A model generated the notes under the pieces. That model saw only the letters and a list, made by a program, of their open reading frames with translations. It did no database searches and had not been told where the DNA came from. A stretch of DNA of 64,000 nucleotides from a virus (Duplodnaviria; Caudoviricetes), in the IMG/VR virus record IMGVR_UViG_3300020036_003099, positions 9,614 through 73,613 of that record. One strand, 5' to 3'. This document shows positions 22,686 through 47,682 of this stretch, piece by piece; the first letter of the stretch is position 1, and each line of letters opens with the position of its first letter. Position numbers and translations under genes: made by a program.

Positions 22686-22832
22686 ACGTATGTCTACAGC
22701 AACGGCCCTTTTCCTTTTGGAAAAGACGCCAACTAATTTCCTCGCCTGAGGATGTAGCTCAGCTGGTTAGAGCGCCTGGTCAAAAGCTTGGAGGACGTTG
22801 GTTCGAATCCAACCATTAAAACAACATACCGT
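22686..22832 (+). ncRNA. Y-RNA-like unit 4 with degenerate tRNA body
   Basis: Stem ACGTATGT/ACATACCGT (bulged C), CTACAGCAA motif, two hairpins, then intact D arm and T arm with a defective anticodon arm and only a 3-4 bp acceptor stem. Confidence 0.68.
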
Positions 22833-22866: not shown

Positions 22867-24324
22867 ATGACGAACTCACCTATCTTCAAAAACGCAATCA
22901 GAAACACACCAGTTAAAGCTTTAACAGCCAACGGCGCTATCACAAACGCGTCTTCTTTGGACCCCTTGGTAGACCTCTTCTTTGTTATCGGCTCTGCTAG
23001 AAACATGTCCGATGCACAACTCTTCCCTATGTTTGAAAAGGCTCTCGCAGAGGACAAGGTTAACACCCTTAAGATGCTCTTTTGGGCCCGTGACATACGT
23101 GGCGGCTCAGGTGAAAGAAAAACCTTTGTCAGGCTTTTCAACTATCTATATAAGCATTACGACTACGAAATGGATGCTATTAGCTTAATCGGTCTTATCC
23201 CCACGTTCGGTAGATTTAAAGATCTTATTGAGTCTTTGCCCCCTGAGGTCGCCGCTGCGTTCCTCTTAAAAGGTATCTCTGCGAAGAACGGCTTGGCTGC
23301 TAAATGGTCCCCGCGTAAAGGTCCTGTGTTCAACGACATGAGAAAGATCCTTAATGTTACCCCTAAAGCCCTCCGTAAAGCCCTTGTGGAGCTCACCAAG
23401 GTGGTTGAAACACAAATGTGTGCGAAACAGTGGGATCAGATTATCTTTGACCACGTGCCTTCTGTGGCTGCTGCTAGATACCAAAAGGCTTTCTCGAAGC
23501 ACCAGCCCGAGCGCTACAAAGCCTACAGGGATGCCCTTAACTCCAAAGACCCTGCTGTAAAGGCTACCGCTAAGATCAACGCTAGCGCTATCTTTCCCCA
23601 CGATGTCCTTAAAAGTCTTCATTTGGGTGATGCAGGGGTTGCTACGGCTCAATGGGAAGCTTTACCCGATTACCTAGGGGACAACAAGATCATCCCTGTT
23701 TGTGACGTATCCGGCTCCATGACTTGCCAAGTTGGTGGTAACCCTAATCTGCGGTGTATCGATATTTGCGTCTCTTTAGGTCTCTACATAGCCGATAAGC
23801 AAAAGGGAGCCTTTAAAGACATTTTCTGCACGTTCTCTTCGAAACCTTCTTTGGAGGTTCTTAAGGGCAACATCGCGCAAAAAGTACGTCAACTAAACGC
23901 CGCCCACTGGGAGATGTCCACCAACGTCGAAGGAGCCTTTAGAGCTATCCTTAAAATGGCTGTGGAGAACAAGGTACCTGCCTCGGACATGCCTAAAATG
24001 CTGCTAATCTTCTCAGATATGGAGTTTAACCCCTCAACAGTGTCTGGATTGACCAATCAGCAAGTCGCTGAAGGATACTTCAAGGCTGCTGGATACAAAT
24101 TACCTAAAATTGTTTACTGGAATCTAAACGCTAGACCAGGCAACAACCCCGTAACGATCCGCGAAGATGGTGTTTGTCTGGTCTCAGGGTTTTCCCCTTC
24201 GATCCTTAAAGCTATCCTGGCTGGTTCTGAAGCCATAGAAGACGACTTTTCACCTAGGGCTATCATGATGAAAACCCTTAATGACCCGCGTTACGCGGTG
24301 GTGGAGGAACTCTTGAAAAAATGA
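22867..24324 (+). CDS. TROVE/Ro60-like helical domain plus vWA protein (DUF2828-type)
   Basis: TANGA, LVDLFF, FWARDIRGGSGERKTF, FGRFKDL, LAAKWSPR; vWA MIDAS VCDVSGSM, STN, FSDMEF, VYWNL, VSGFSP. Confidence 0.8.
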   Translation: MTNSPIFKNAIRNTPVKALTANGAITNASSLDPLVDLFFVIGSARNMSDAQLFPMFEKALAEDKVNTLKMLFWARDIRGGSGERKTFVRLFNYLYKHYDYEMDAISLIGLIPTFGRFKDLIESLPPEVAAAFLLKGISAKNGLAAKWSPRKGPVFNDMRKILNVTPKALRKALVELTKVVETQMCAKQWDQIIFDHVPSVAAARYQKAFSKHQPERYKAYRDALNSKDPAVKATAKINASAIFPHDVLKSLHLGDAGVATAQWEALPDYLGDNKIIPVCDVSGSMTCQVGGNPNLRCIDICVSLGLYIADKQKGAFKDIFCTFSSKPSLEVLKGNIAQKVRQLNAAHWEMSTNVEGAFRAILKMAVENKVPASDMPKMLLIFSDMEFNPSTVSGLTNQQVAEGYFKAAGYKLPKIVYWNLNARPGNNPVTIREDGVCLVSGFSPSILKAILAGSEAIEDDFSPRAIMMKTLNDPRYAVVEELLKK

Positions 24325-30150: not shown

Positions 30151-31608
30151 ATGACACACAACCTCCTCTTGATGACAGACGTATACAAGTTCGACCATGC
30201 AGCGCAATACCCAAAAGGCACCAACAAAATCTACTCTTATTTCTGCGCGAGAAAGGCGAGTGAAGAATATGGCTCTGAAACAGTTTTCTTTGGTCTTCAA
30301 TACTACCTTAAGAAATACCTCTCTAAACCTGTAACAAAGGAAAACGTAGATGAATTCAAAGATGTATGTGATTCTATCCTTGGCCCTGGTGCTGTCGATT
30401 ATAACCGCTTCTATGCTTTGGCTGAACTTGGCTACTTGCCACTTAAAATTAAAGCCGTACGAGAAGGCGAAATCGTTGGTATCAAAAACGCTCTTTTCAC
30501 ATTAACCAACACTCACCCAGATTTCTACTGGCTCGTTAACTACATCGAAACCTTGCTTTTAAAAGTTTGGTACCCGATGACGGTAGCGACTATCTCTCAC
30601 TCTTACAGAAAGCTGTGCTCGGACTATGCTGATAGAACCTGTGATGATAAAACACAACTACCTTTTCAAATACACGACTTCGGCTACAGAGCTGTTTCGT
30701 CTGAAGAATCAGCAGGGCTTGGCGGTGCTGCACACTTGCTCAATTTCATGGGGACAGACACTACCGCAGGAATTACCTTTTTGCGTGACTACTATTCTGG
30801 ACAATATCCAATTGGGTTGTCCGTTCCGGCCAGCGAACACTCCGTGATGTGTGCTCACAGCCCTGACAGTCACGATTACCTGGCTATTGAGAACATGCTC
30901 AAGCAATACCCCAAAGGCATCGTGTCGATTGTCTCTGATACGTTTGATCTTTGGAGAGCTGTGGACTGGTACTGCAACGAATTGAAAGATGACATCCTAG
31001 CCAGGGAAGGTAAAGTCGTTATCCGCCCTGACTCAGGCGACCCCGAGAAGATCTTTCTAGGCAACCCTGAAGCCGGTAACGAAATGGAACGTGACGGTCT
31101 CATAGAAACCCTTTGGAAACATTTTGGAGGTACCACAAATGCAAAAGGCTTTAAAGTCCTCGATCAAAGGATCGGTGCGATTTACGGAGATGCTATTTAC
31201 TTTGCGAGAGCTAGAAGAATCTTTGCAGGTCTTGCAGAAAAAGGCTTTGCTTCTTCAAACGTTGTCTTCGGTATTGGGGGTATCCTTTTACAGTGCTGCA
31301 CGAGGGATACCTATGGGTGTTCTCTTAAAGCGACTTACGCAGAGGTCGAAGGCGTTCCACGAGCGATTATGAAGGCCCCTAAAACGGATGCTGCCAAGAA
31401 TAGCCATAAGGGGCCCCTAAGGCTCAATATGAGCTATACAATGGACCCAGATAAAGACGGAGCTATCCCTGGTTCTGTTGATTACATCACGCAGCAAGAA
31501 CAAACTTGGGGGCAAGAATCTACAGGGTTTTTACAAACCGTTTACGAAGACGGTAAGTTAATTGAAGATATAACTTTAGAGGAACTCCGTAAAAAGCTTA
31601 TGGTTTAA
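30151..31608 (+). CDS. nadV: Nicotinamide phosphoribosyltransferase-like protein (candidate NARP1 Namat)
   Basis: LMTDVYKFDH, FFGLQY, HDFGYR, FMGTDT, SVPASEHSVM, SIVSDTFD, VIRPDSGD, IYGDAI, FGIGG, RDTYG. Confidence 0.92.
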   Translation: MTHNLLLMTDVYKFDHAAQYPKGTNKIYSYFCARKASEEYGSETVFFGLQYYLKKYLSKPVTKENVDEFKDVCDSILGPGAVDYNRFYALAELGYLPLKIKAVREGEIVGIKNALFTLTNTHPDFYWLVNYIETLLLKVWYPMTVATISHSYRKLCSDYADRTCDDKTQLPFQIHDFGYRAVSSEESAGLGGAAHLLNFMGTDTTAGITFLRDYYSGQYPIGLSVPASEHSVMCAHSPDSHDYLAIENMLKQYPKGIVSIVSDTFDLWRAVDWYCNELKDDILAREGKVVIRPDSGDPEKIFLGNPEAGNEMERDGLIETLWKHFGGTTNAKGFKVLDQRIGAIYGDAIYFARARRIFAGLAEKGFASSNVVFGIGGILLQCCTRDTYGCSLKATYAEVEGVPRAIMKAPKTDAAKNSHKGPLRLNMSYTMDPDKDGAIPGSVDYITQQEQTWGQESTGFLQTVYEDGKLIEDITLEELRKKLMV

Positions 31609-31691: not shown

Positions 31692-32132
31692 GTGTTAGAA
31701 CAAGGCAACCGTTGCTACTGGTGTACGATAGATTTCGACACTGATAACCCACCTACTACAGAGCATCTTTCACCTTTAGGTCAAGGTGGAAGTGTAAAAC
31801 ATCCCGATAACATCGTAGCGGCCTGTCTTTACTGCAACTCTATGCGAAATACTGTCGGCTGCTACAACTGGAAAAGGCACATACACGAATGGCGAAAAAC
31901 ACTTGGTTCATCTCAGACACTCACTTCAGCCACGCCAACATCATTGTCTTTGAGCATGAAGGCAAGCGTATCCGTCCTTTTCAAACGATTGAGGAACACG
32001 ATGAATTACTTGTGGAAAATTGGAACAAACTTATTAAGCCCTCAGACCGCGTATATCATCTCGGAGATGTCGTCATCAACAGAAAAGCCCTACCCATCCT
32101 CAACAGACTTAACGGGAAAAAGAAACTCATAA
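31692..32132 (+). CDS. HNH endonuclease
   Basis: CYWC...TTEHLSPLGQGG...NIVAACLYCN; 3' end overlaps the next gene. Confidence 0.8.
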   Translation: MLEQGNRCYWCTIDFDTDNPPTTEHLSPLGQGGSVKHPDNIVAACLYCNSMRNTVGCYNWKRHIHEWRKTLGSSQTLTSATPTSLSLSMKASVSVLFKRLRNTMNYLWKIGTNLLSPQTAYIISEMSSSTEKPYPSSTDLTGKRNS

Positions 32133-32437
32133 AGGGAAATCATGATATATTCAAGCTGGCAGACTACGCACCTTACTTTGAAGACATACTTGCTTATCGC
32201 ATTTATCCAAGCCATGGTGTCATTTGTAGTCACATACCTATACATCCTTGTCATTTAAAATCCCGTTGGAGGCGAAATGTCCATGGACATCTGCACCAGA
32301 ATCTGGTAAACCTAGATTACATTGGGCCTGAATACGGTGACTTCGACAATTCGCCAGACTTTAGGTACGTTAACATTTGCGTAGAACACACTAACTGGAA
32401 ACCGGTACATTTTGACGAGGTTATAAGTAATGGTTGA
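31889..32437 (+). CDS. Calcineurin-like metallophosphoesterase
   Basis: ISDTH, HLGD, KGNHD, SHIP, HGHLH. Confidence 0.9.
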   Translation: MAKNTWFISDTHFSHANIIVFEHEGKRIRPFQTIEEHDELLVENWNKLIKPSDRVYHLGDVVINRKALPILNRLNGKKKLIKGNHDIFKLADYAPYFEDILAYRIYPSHGVICSHIPIHPCHLKSRWRRNVHGHLHQNLVNLDYIGPEYGDFDNSPDFRYVNICVEHTNWKPVHFDEVISNG

Positions 32438-38018: not shown

Positions 38019-38046
38019 TTGACTAACCTCGCTACTCCTGTAGAGT
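38019..38046 (+). promoter_or_regulatory. sigma70-type promoter upstream of SSB
   Basis: TTGACT-N16-TAGAGT overlapped by the hairpin GCTACTC-CTGTA-GAGTAGC. Confidence 0.5.
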
Positions 38047-46085: not shown

Positions 46086-46480
46086 CTTTAAACGTACGCA
46101 ACAGAATGGCTGTGACCACAAACCCTTTTCAAGGTGACTACAAGAAAGTCCTGTGTGTTTGCTCTGCAGGTCTTCTCAGGTCGCCTACAGCAGCCTTTGT
46201 TCTTTCCAATCCCCCTTTTAATTTCAACACAAGATCTGTAGGAATAACCACAGAGTTTGCTCTCATACCCCTAGATGAAGCCTTGCTTTTCTGGAGTCAA
46301 GAGATTGTTTGTATGGAGAATTGGCAAAAAGAAAGAATTGAGACCCTGTTAAGAGAAGCAAATTTAAAGCGTCCCGTTATCAACTTAAGTATCGATGATC
46401 GTCACAGTTACAGAGATCCTGAGCTGATGCGCTTGGTTCGAGAACAATACGTACTATTAAAAGGCTTACCCAATGAATAA
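46082..46480 (+). CDS. Low-molecular-weight PTP-like phosphatase
   Basis: P-loop CVCSAGLLRSPT; terminal acid loop IDD...YRDPEL. Confidence 0.82.
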   Translation: MTLNVRNRMAVTTNPFQGDYKKVLCVCSAGLLRSPTAAFVLSNPPFNFNTRSVGITTEFALIPLDEALLFWSQEIVCMENWQKERIETLLREANLKRPVINLSIDDRHSYRDPELMRLVREQYVLLKGLPNE

Positions 46481-46712
46481 AAACAATTTAAACGCAGAAG
46501 AAAAAGAACTCCTAACGACACCCATTAGGGTTCTCCTGTCACAAGAAACAGATAACGGAGAAAGAGATCTATCTTTCTTTCACAGAGCCCTACGTATTTG
46601 GGACCGTCTAGCACAAGCCAATTGGGATACCCCTAGGGCTCCCCGTGAAGATTGGCTTTATGAAAGAAATGGGGATGAAACAGGTTCGACCACAGCACCA
46701 TCTAAGCTGTGA
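46473..46712 (+). CDS. Hypothetical protein (3' end overlaps the mini-tmRNA)
   Basis: 79 aa, coupled to the upstream gene. Confidence 0.4.
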   Translation: MNKNNLNAEEKELLTTPIRVLLSQETDNGERDLSFFHRALRIWDRLAQANWDTPRAPREDWLYERNGDETGSTTAPSKL

Positions 46713-46743
46713 CACCACGGGGCAGTGCCGTGCATCTCCACCA
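46671..46743 (+). ncRNA. ssrA: Mini-tmRNA: tRNA-like domain only
   Basis: GGGGATG/CATCTCC-ACCA acceptor stem with G3-U70, D-loop analogue ending UUCGAC, T arm CACGG-GGCAGTG-CCGTG; body replaced by a 6-bp hairpin. Confidence 0.75.
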
Positions 46744-46780
46744 AACTTTATAGTTAATAAAAGGTTAACAAAAAATACTG

Positions 46781-46810
46781 TTGACAAACCCTCTGAGAAT
46801 CCTGTAGGGT
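46781..46810 (+). promoter_or_regulatory. Promoter for the tRNA cluster
   Basis: TTGACA-N18-TAGGGT with extended TG. Confidence 0.5.
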
Positions 46811-46899
46811 ACTCTTAGAAGCAAACGATAACTCTTTTACTGAAGTTCGCCTTGCGGCCTAATTCAGTTACCTAATCTTCCTCACACGAAGTATCTACC

Positions 46900-46936
46900 G
46901 AGAAAGCCCTCTTAATCCCCACTAGAGGGCTTTCTC
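46900..46936 (+). other. Perfect 13-bp hairpin in the tRNA-cluster leader
   Basis: GAGAAAGCCCTCT/AGAGGGCTTTCTC, ending 15 nt before tRNA-Met. Confidence 0.6.
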
Positions 46937-46951
46937 ACCCCTTTCATACAT

Positions 46952-47031
46952 AGCAGGGTAGCTTAGTCCGGTCTAAAGCACAGCGTTCATACCGCTGATA
47001 ACGTGGGTTCAAATCCCACCCGCTGCAACCA
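46952..47031 (+). tRNA. tRNA-Met(CAT) (atypical acceptor stem)
   Basis: Anticodon arm CAGCG-TTCATAC-CGCTG, T arm GTGGG-TTCAAAT-CCCAC, encoded CCA. Confidence 0.85.
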
Positions 47032-47046
47032 ATCAATACATGTATA

Positions 47047-47122
47047 GACCAGGTGGCAGAATGACGATGCGCTAGATTGCAGATCTGGTTTAACGCGGGT
47101 TTGATTCCCGTCCTGGTCTCCA
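47047..47122 (+). tRNA. tRNA-Cys(GCA)
   Basis: GACCAGG/CCTGGTC acceptor stem, U73, CCA, loop TTGCAGA. Confidence 0.88.
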
Positions 47123-47152
47123 TGTATACAAAGTAAAAACAAATAAACATAG

Positions 47153-47503
47153 GTGCAACATCTTACCCCGCGCCAAAGAAGGCGCTATCTAAAGAAACAA
47201 AACTACCGCTCATTCCTTGACTCATTAGTTTGTCAGATCTGCGGTCACGATAAACCCCATCACATAGAGCTTCATCACTTAGATCCAACTTCTAAGGAAG
47301 CCAACGTATCCAGACGAATTAACCAGTGCCAATCAGATGTCGCTATCATAACTGAGATTGAAAAGTGCGCTGCTTTGTGTTCTTATTGCCACAAGGATGT
47401 TCATAAGGGATTGCACAGCGATAAAATATTAGAACCGTTAAACTATATCGGTGTAGCACAGGGACAGTGCGCGGGTCTCCAAAACCTTGAGACGTTGGTT
47501 TGA
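47153..47503 (+). CDS. HNH homing-type endonuclease inside the tRNA cluster
   Basis: CQICG...ELHHLDP...EIEKCAALCSYCHKDVH. Confidence 0.85.
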   Translation: MQHLTPRQRRRYLKKQNYRSFLDSLVCQICGHDKPHHIELHHLDPTSKEANVSRRINQCQSDVAIITEIEKCAALCSYCHKDVHKGLHSDKILEPLNYIGVAQGQCAGLQNLETLV

Positions 47504-47521
47504 ATCCAGCCGCCGGTGCCA
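47447..47521 (+). tRNA. tRNA-Trp(CCA)
   Basis: ATCGGTG/CGCCGGT acceptor stem, loop CTCCAAA, G73, CCA. Confidence 0.85.
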
Positions 47522-47526
47522 ATTAT

Positions 47527-47603
47527 TCTCACTAGCCGAACAAGGCGGACGGAGCTGACTGTTAATCAGCGTATGCAAGGTTCGATTCCTTGAGTGAGAA
47601 CCA
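47527..47603 (+). tRNA. tRNA-Asn(GTT)
   Basis: TCTCACT/AGTGAGA acceptor stem, GCTGA-CTGTTAA-TCAGC, T arm CAAGG-TTCGATT-CCTTG, CCA. Confidence 0.88.
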
Positions 47604-47608
47604 ACTAC

Positions 47609-47682
47609 GACTACATCGTTCAGTGACAGGACCTGGGATTGTCTATCCTAAGACCGGAGTTTGATTCTCCGTGTAGTCGCCA
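47609..47682 (+). tRNA. tRNA-Asp(GTC)
   Basis: GACTACA/TGTAGTC acceptor stem, loop TTGTCTA, G73, CCA. Confidence 0.88.

Follow-up and report, generated by a model that had tools for sequence, protein, structure and literature searches.

The window analysed here is a 64-kb stretch of a complete 73.6-kb virus record that has direct terminal repeats. In one short part of it, a small open reading frame (ORF) runs into a gene for a compact tRNA-like domain (TLD) of tmRNA; this gene is followed by a spacer that holds a message-like, tag-coding piece, and the spacer in turn by a cluster of tRNA genes (Table 1). The window also carries genes for a T7-like primase-helicase, a family A DNA polymerase, ribonucleotide reductase, PhoH, an endolysin and an RNA ligase, and the phage encodes a replication module of the lytic type. 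The nearest DNA polymerases are those of Pelagibacter, Rhizobium and Roseobacter phages, at ~31% identity, and searches with neighbouring proteins led to distant phages only (at most 58% identity). There was no match to the phage in the phage collection and no exact-pattern match in viral contigs, and the sole other contig that matches it is 100% identical, so that conservation of its TLD copy is not readable from relatives. The complete genome has no PF00589 (tyrosine) integrase and no gene for SmpB, and its 73.6 kb hold no tmRNA piece beyond these.

Table 1. Features of the tmRNA locus and its flanks, in window coordinates.
Feature	Position	Strand	Basis and remarks
79-codon ORF, probably protein-coding	46473..46712	+	codon score; stop TGA at 46710-46712
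Compact tmRNA TLD gene, 73 nt	46671..46743	+	sequence, fold, covariation, family model
Spacer holding the tag-coding (message-like) piece	46744..46950	+	between the TLD CCA and tRNA-Met; without a 5' acceptor strand
Promoter-like site (TTGACA, 18 nt, TAGGGT)	46781..46810	+	fully non-coding; predicted from a consensus match
tmRNA tag frame	46821..46862	+	resume codon GCA, 13 codons ANDNSFTEVRLAA, stop TAA
Hairpin over the tag-frame end and stop codon	46839..46868	+	stem ACTGAA/TTCAGT; tmRNA helix 5 position; fold of 46744-46950
13-bp perfect hairpin, loop CTTAATCCCCA	46900..46936	+	fold
tRNA cluster: Met, Cys, Trp, Asn, Asp	46951..47682	+	five genes; stable-RNA operon directly downstream of the tag piece
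HNH endonuclease ORF	47153-47503		inside the tRNA cluster, between tRNA-Cys and tRNA-Trp; PHROG 2255, E 6e-17

ARAGORN and Rfam at its curated thresholds report the five downstream tRNAs, one tRNA-like stretch at 22752 and nothing else. That stretch (22752-22816) is a partial match to RF00005 (39.9 bits, model positions 5-66) that ARAGORN does not call, and a gene with DUF2828 and DUF7788 domains (22867-24324) lies just 3' of it. A 188-aa protein encoded at 37441-38007 matches the Pfam RNA_ligase family (PF09414, 43 bits), and the RNA ligase gene and tRNA cluster together suggest a capacity for RNA repair. The first-pass annotation had connected the TLD with a possible protection of phage proteins when tRNAs are cleaved; beyond the neighbouring tRNA genes and the ligase gene elsewhere in the genome we found no support for that connection. 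Also present are a possible metallophosphoesterase (31889-32437), sub-threshold in Pfam at 18.6 bits vs a cut-off of 27, and a NAMPT/NAPRTase-family protein (30151-31608; PF04095 148 bits, PF18127 67 bits), which points to a nicotinamide salvage gene in the phage.

The TLD folds into three helices. Its acceptor stem (GGGGATG/CATCTCC) has 7 bp, formed by 46671-46677 with 46733-46739 and opening with G1-C72, G2-C71 and G3-U70; A73 is at 46740 and the CCA is encoded (46741-46743). The D-loop analogue, which follows the 5' acceptor strand directly and has no stem, comprises 13 unpaired nucleotides (46678-46690) ending in GGTTCGAC. After it come a capped helix equivalent to P2 (6 bp, 46691-46696 with 46706-46711, closed by a 9-nt loop), the linker ACAC, where most family members have GGAC, and a T arm of 5 bp (46716-46720 with 46728-46732) with the 7-nt loop GGCAGTG. 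All 18 pairs are intact, as are the alanine identity elements (G3-U70, A73 and 3' CCA). An anticodon arm is absent, and neither ARAGORN nor RF00005 calls a tRNA here. The parse given in the first-pass annotation matches the sequence exactly, and the minimum-free-energy fold consists of the same three helices, with an energy that is unremarkable taken alone (z -1.1).

The first 42 nt of the TLD are shared with the last 14 codons of the 79-codon ORF. Codon usage in this ORF is normal for the phage: the codon score is 0.156 in frame vs -0.16 and -0.45 in the other frames, a value that no out-of-frame window of a known gene attains, and its product has no homologue but itself among 5.8 billion proteins. 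The ORF ends at its TGA, and the TAA in the TLD hairpin loop is not its stop. If RNase P cut the TLD from a shared transcript at 46671, the 79-codon mRNA would be left without a stop codon; the one earlier description of an mRNA made nonstop by processing concerns smpB-ssrA of Carsonella, and the situation is a rare one in general (PMC4131195). A consensus scan found no promoter of the TLD's own.

By sequence comparison the TLD is confirmed as genuine, and the evidence that takes it beyond chance is comparative rather than a matter of fold energy. Viral and metagenomic contigs were scanned for compact TLDs with patterns based on the two ends of the window's TLD, and the elements so retrieved share one plan: a 5' acceptor strand, GGTTCGAC, a short capped helix, a T arm and the 3' strand. 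In an alignment of 15 compact elements, the window's included, 94.4% of pair cells hold standard pairs, vs 45-57% when the 3' partners are slid; two-sided changes occur at all five T-arm pairs and all six hairpin pairs, and the observed covariation values were reached by 0 of 500 shuffles. The G3-U70 pair is kept in 15 of 15 elements and GGTTCGAC is invariant. A covariance model built without the window's sequence matches 46671-46743 end to end (59.3 bits, E 2.5e-12), the only significant match in the 64 kb (the next best scores 12.8 bits). Since the family members were fetched by the window's own end patterns, this model is partly circular, and only the internal helices (the hairpin and T-arm pairs) count as independent. 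The earlier identification of a one-piece tmRNA TLD with alanine identity elements is upheld by these data.

General tmRNA models behave differently: the model of compact phage TLDs finds the element, as above, but RF00023 (gathering threshold 47 bits) has no match on it at E up to 10 in a permissive Rfam scan. ARAGORN makes no call on the TLD, nor on in-silico constructs in standard and permuted order assembled from the parts of the window and of L236, a contig of a second lineage described below; we read this as intolerance of these T loops. The failure of the general models is due to the T loop GGCAGTG, which departs from the general TTCGANT consensus. Five other compact phage TLDs do pass the 47-bit gathering score of RF00023, in alignments that delete the 308-position body of the model (L231, 67.2 bits; L184, 64.8; L245, 56.2; L190, 56.0; L163, 48.9), and these five are recognisable as TLD-only tmRNAs because the standard Rfam model itself calls them. 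Viral and metagenomic contigs fairly commonly carry compact TLD-only genes (62-85 nt), in many cases immediately next to tRNA genes (L163, L165/L178/L198/L211, L184, L190, L231, L245, L258, L261, L262, L263, L268); several have no encoded CCA, and the T loop of L263, GGCAGCA, is close to the window's. No tag frame was found over the full length of the other compact-TLD loci, several of which have short flanks. The first-pass annotation had suggested looking for related phages with such an element next to their tRNA clusters; many compact phage TLDs do adjoin tRNA genes, and no close relatives of this phage were found.

Permuted phage tmRNAs of the conventional kind that share this acceptor stem have the T loops GGCAGTA (L192), GGCAGAG (L196), TGCAAAT or TGCGATT (L162), and the window-type T arm and acceptor end occur in 78 species genomes, mostly of Alphaproteobacteria (most are Rickettsiales, Holosporaceae, Acetobacteraceae, Rhodospirillales or Rhizobiales, plus some Patescibacteria). 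None of the cellular genes in these genomes is compact; the layouts that a script could read are permuted or standard, and the 5' halves (e.g., GGGGATGAAACAGGATCGAC) and ANDN tags of these genes closely resemble the window's. The first-pass annotation had ascribed this type of T loop to alphaproteobacterial tmRNAs, and its occurrence in the 78 genomes and in permuted phage tmRNAs agrees with that. Judged by these comparisons, the GGCAG-type T loop is a lineage trait and not a sign of decay, and the T-loop type and the cellular matches point to an alphaproteobacterial host. The Patescibacteria concerned (Gracilibacteria, Saccharibacteria and others: L279, L280, L289, L301, L304, L309, L334, L336, L339, L342 and L351) have standard-order tmRNA genes with the GGCAG-type T arm and acceptor end.

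A tRNA-like element in a phage might also be an attachment-site copy of the 3' end of host ssrA, or else a tRNA-like fold that arose by chance where the 79-codon ORF ends. Integration into tmRNA genes is frequent, prophages do carry ssrA fragments (PMC9004378), and the TLD does overlap an ORF. Such fragments, however, hold the 3' part only; this element has the D-loop analogue as well, and a 5' strand that pairs perfectly with the 3' strand. Further, the phage has direct terminal repeats, a lytic-type replication module and no tyrosine integrase. The chance fold is excluded by the family model together with the adjacent tag frame. With both TLD halves present in a phage that lacks an integrase, the element is not the attachment-site remnant that the first-pass annotation had named as one outcome that would overturn its reading, and we regard the two possibilities, taken together, as very improbable indeed.

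Downstream of the TLD, the tag frame begins 78 nt 3' of the CCA, in the upstream context TTAGAA with UAG at -5 to -3. It is uninterrupted, with an ANDN start and an LAA end, and among the frames of 8-25 codons on both strands of the window (128 kb), ANDNSFTEVRLAA alone fits the pattern AND...[LVA]A[AV]. A permissive Rfam scan matches the tag region (46810-46862) to RF04321 (23.5 bits, E 0.0065) and RF01849 (13.2 bits), scores that fall below the gathering thresholds (47 and 50 bits; the conventional permuted relative L162 scores 107 bits); within the whole genome the match has an E-value of 2.5e-4. In an nhmmer search with a sequence-only profile of coding pieces, the tag region was the second-ranked match (E 0.076). 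The first-pass annotation had described the whole mRNA-like domain as removed. It is indeed absent from the 73-nt RNA, and yet it is present at the locus; with a tag piece 78 nt downstream, removal of the domain describes the RNA and not the system.

The stop codon of the frame is covered by a hairpin, and the longer, perfect hairpin that follows is probably the 3' stabiliser of a putative tag RNA. Its loop resembles, by eye and with no control, the 3' hairpin loop and tail motifs of permuted phage coding pieces (CCTTGTAAYCCAA in L213, L176, L217, L196 and L162; ACTTAATCCCCAAGG in L227). What sets this piece apart is its 5' side. The conventional 5' half (acceptor strand, D-loop analogue and P2 strand) is kept in all of the ~117 sampled phage coding pieces, whereas between the CCA and the tag frame (46744-46820) there is no GGGG...TTCGAC. 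In the window, the 5' half lies before the T arm and closes the TLD on itself. A resemblance of 46643-46670 to the 5' tails of acceptor pieces was rejected as a weak similarity that lies in coding sequence.

The promoter-like site in the spacer ends 10 nt before the resume codon, which would place the predicted start ~4 nt before that codon; a stricter promoter consensus scan does not call it. It has an extended motif (TTGACnAACC ... CCTGTAGrGT) in common with an intergenic site at 38019-38046, 28 nt before a gene, and the two may represent a promoter type of this phage. Among the 19 TTGAC-N15-19-TAnnnT sites, eight lie wholly or largely in non-coding DNA. A candidate PK1-like pseudoknot (46789-46818; CCCU/AGGG and CUGAGA/UCUUAG) shares its position in part with the promoter-like site, and L236 has nothing equivalent.

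The same layout recurs in a second lineage, represented by two metagenomic phage contigs, L236 (IMGVR_UViG_3300027920_000431) and its relative L259 (ERZ724522.3129), from a different metagenome. Here a closed TLD of 69 nt is followed by a tRNA or tRNA-like gene, a promoter-like site and the tag frame ANDNVSQFQARVAA, again without a 5' half and again with the stop codon covered by a hairpin. Between L236 and the window there is no tblastx similarity outside these RNAs, and all helix sequences differ. The two lineages are alike in having the same acceptor stem, a closed TLD, a tag frame without its own 5' half and a promoter-like site (a consensus match in each) that ends 10-13 nt before the resume codon; an A at -4 of the resume codon is also kept in both. 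They are unlike in that L236 and L259 have the tRNA or tRNA-like gene between the units and are followed by a protein gene instead of a tRNA cluster, and in that their P2 stub has a GAAG tetraloop, their T loop is TGCGAT and the loop of their 3' hairpin belongs to the CTTGGTAACAGAA type. In L236 a promoter-like motif with just two occurrences in 5.4 kb stands before the TLD and before the tag frame.

Comparison of the two contigs gives a measure of constraint. Their coding flanks differ at 108/1575 sites (6.9%), the segment that begins at the resume codon and reaches to the next gene at 3/150 (binomial P 0.007 vs the coding flanks) and the TLD with its promoter at 2/108, which for both RNA parts together gives P 0.0003; the promoter-like site of the tag frame itself differs at 5/40. 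The gene between the TLD and the tag frame has been exchanged outright (L236:961-1050 vs L259:4972-5060) in phages that are otherwise ~93% identical. In L259 it is, by eye, an ordinary tRNA; in L236 it is a tRNA-like gene with an acceptor stem, T arm and CCA that neither ARAGORN nor Rfam calls.

These figures bear on whether the locus is simply a decaying leftover, that is, a rearranged permuted phage tmRNA gene whose parts are no longer functional RNAs. It could have arisen by, e.g., recombination with a TLD-only gene or duplication and deletion, and the tag piece would then be only the leader of the tRNA operon. The layout is rare compared with conventional permuted genes, the Rfam scores are sub-threshold and the T loop is off the general consensus; the spacer may even hold a degraded second 5' half at 46770-46787, a weak similarity (12/20 matches to GGGGATGAATAGGTTCGACA by eye) on which we do not rely. 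Yet 18 of 18 TLD pairs, A73 and CCA are intact, the T loop is a lineage trait, and a 13-bp perfect hairpin and an uninterrupted 13-codon frame with a degron end persist. Further, both RNA parts of L236 and L259 evolve more slowly than the neighbouring genes. We therefore consider decay improbable.

Between TLD and tag piece there is no excess complementarity at any of the three loci: in the window the pairing energy is -33.7 kcal/mol vs -34.0 +/- 4.3 for shuffles, and in L236 and L259 the duplex is weaker than that of their own shuffles. A 5-6 nt match between the TLD hairpin loop (UCUAA) and UUAGA before the resume codon was rejected, being neither above chance nor conserved (L236 has a tetraloop there).

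Our best explanation, to which we give about an even chance, is that this is a tmRNA locus of alphaproteobacterial type that has been rearranged into two unlinked units and whose TLD functions alone, in tag-less rescue or in competition. Unit 1 (46671-46743) has both acceptor strands, the D-loop analogue, a capped P2 stub and the T arm; after an RNase P cut at G1 and 3' trimming to CCA, it would fold without a partner RNA. Unit 2 (from ~46817 or 46744 to ~46940) would correspond to the coding piece of a permuted tmRNA minus its first ~26 nt, retaining the resume context, the tag frame, the stop-codon hairpin and the 3' hairpin, and placed after a promoter-like site of its own and before five tRNAs. 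Host AlaRS would charge the TLD via G3-U70 and A73, and host SmpB (needed for delivery, since the phage has none) would together with EF-Tu bring the charged TLD to stalled ribosomes. With no message tethered to it, the TLD would either add alanine only, a tag-less rescue, or act mainly by competing with host tmRNA for SmpB; either way, there would be less degradation tagging during infection.

The structural part of this TLD-alone explanation is far more secure than the functional part. Directly supported are the anatomy, family membership as seen in covariation, an intact tag frame, the occurrence of the layout in a second lineage and the finding that the two units show no complementarity beyond chance; transcription, processing, charging, SmpB binding and an effect on the host are what we infer. 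That a TLD without a message can be a viable phage gene follows from the other compact TLDs with no tag frame nearby and from the published case of phage DS6A. Counting against the TLD-alone explanation are the absence of a call by ARAGORN and RF00023, the ACAC linker, the overlap with an ORF and the failure to find a TLD promoter. Moreover, an intact and conserved tag piece as a neighbour is not expected if the TLD acts strictly alone.

The tag piece would have a use if the two RNAs cooperated without base pairing, as an unlinked two-RNA tmRNA in which the message is read in trans. Ala-TLD with SmpB would take over the nascent chain and move to the P site, and a free tag RNA, positioned by SmpB, would enter the empty mRNA channel and be translated from the GCA codon onwards, which would append ANDNSFTEVRLAA; such an RNA would start only a few bases ahead of the resume codon. 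SmpB reads the bases just upstream of the resume codon, and an A stands at -4 in both lineages (UAG at -5 to -3 in the window). The frame itself is intact from its ANDN start to its LAA end, with its stop codon inside a hairpin, and L236 and L259, with wholly different helix sequences, preserve both the layout and an intact ANDNVSQFQARVAA frame in RNA parts that diverge less than the coding flanks. A promoter-like site 10-13 nt before the resume codon in both lineages, and the motif in L236 that precedes both TLD and tag frame, would fit separate synthesis of a tag RNA. Against reading in trans, our literature search found no precedent for the reading of a message that lacks both a covalent link to the TLD and base pairing with it, the units have no excess complementarity, the layout is rare (each of the ~117 phage coding pieces sampled has a 5' half of its own) and other compact TLDs have no tag frame nearby. 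The promoter-like sites, moreover, are consensus matches only: they could merely serve the downstream tRNAs (in the window) or the protein gene (in L236 and L259), and the 'promoter' of the latter pair differs at 5/40 sites. On this evidence we regard reading in trans as a serious rival to the TLD-alone explanation, though a less likely one.

tmRNA combines the functions of a tRNA and an mRNA, joined in one molecule or in one base-paired complex, and structural work explains the loading of the message through this tether. The gene forms in the 2025 tmRNA database are standard, intron-containing and permuted, with or without a tag frame (PMC11915505); these forms do not include a closed TLD with an unlinked tag piece, nor was one found in a literature search that was not exhaustive. 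One group with which we compared the window is that of the permuted two-piece tmRNAs (RF01849, RF04321; Melnitz, L162, L192, L196, L227), which occur in Alphaproteobacteria and in marine or aquatic phages and are common in aquatic phages such as methylophage Melnitz (PMC9004378). The window and the permuted tmRNAs have in common the acceptor stem GGGGATG/CATCTCC, the D-loop analogue, the T-loop type, an ANDN...AA tag, the stop-codon hairpin and the 3' hairpin loop motif, and the window's tag frame has the GCA resume codon, A-rich upstream context and hydrophobic ...AA end of the permuted forms. Their gene order, in which an acceptor piece and an intervening segment precede a coding piece headed by the 5' acceptor strand, is not that of the window. 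They mature into two RNA molecules that are joined through intermolecular pairing in the acceptor stem and helix P2, whereas in the window both strands of both helices lie in one 73-nt RNA and the coding piece is left without a pairing strand.

TLD-only forms, for their part, are already known. The tmRNA of Mycobacterium phage DS6A (tmRNA Website ID 11587) carries the label 'TLD only' in PMC4131195, with reference to Mao et al. 2009, SmpB titration is its proposed action (PMC4131195; PMC11915505), and the 2025 database has a class 'Standard, no CDS' (PMC11915505). The TLD-only RNA as an SmpB sponge, which the first-pass annotation had put forward as one of two possible roles, therefore has published antecedents. 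DS6A is described without a tag frame, unlike the window with its tag piece 78 nt downstream; the window's TLD further differs in its alphaproteobacterial, permuted-gene ancestry, in its GGCAG-type T loop and in being missed by Rfam and ARAGORN. The mitochondrial tmRNAs of jakobids and oomycetes (RF02544) and the ~65-nt plastid forms are, like the TLD, reduced RNAs with no tag frame (PMC11915505; see also PMC3590771), and they are set apart by being organellar, usually permuted and without a separate tag piece nearby. Thus, the TLD-only phage tmRNA and the idea of SmpB titration are already published, and what is new is the adjacent, unlinked tag piece.

Since ARAGORN and Rfam at curated thresholds both miss this TLD, the number of phage tmRNA parts that have T loops of the alphaproteobacterial type and an unusual layout is probably underestimated. 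At this locus both functions of tmRNA appear to be under selection although they sit on unlinked RNAs, which makes it possible to ask by direct experiment whether a tether is required. Should the tag RNA prove inactive, the locus would be an example of a phage turning a rescue RNA into a tag-less competitor. Should the message be read in trans, which we hold to be less likely, the locus would represent a fourth form of tmRNA gene, and tethering of message to TLD would not be obligatory for trans-translation.
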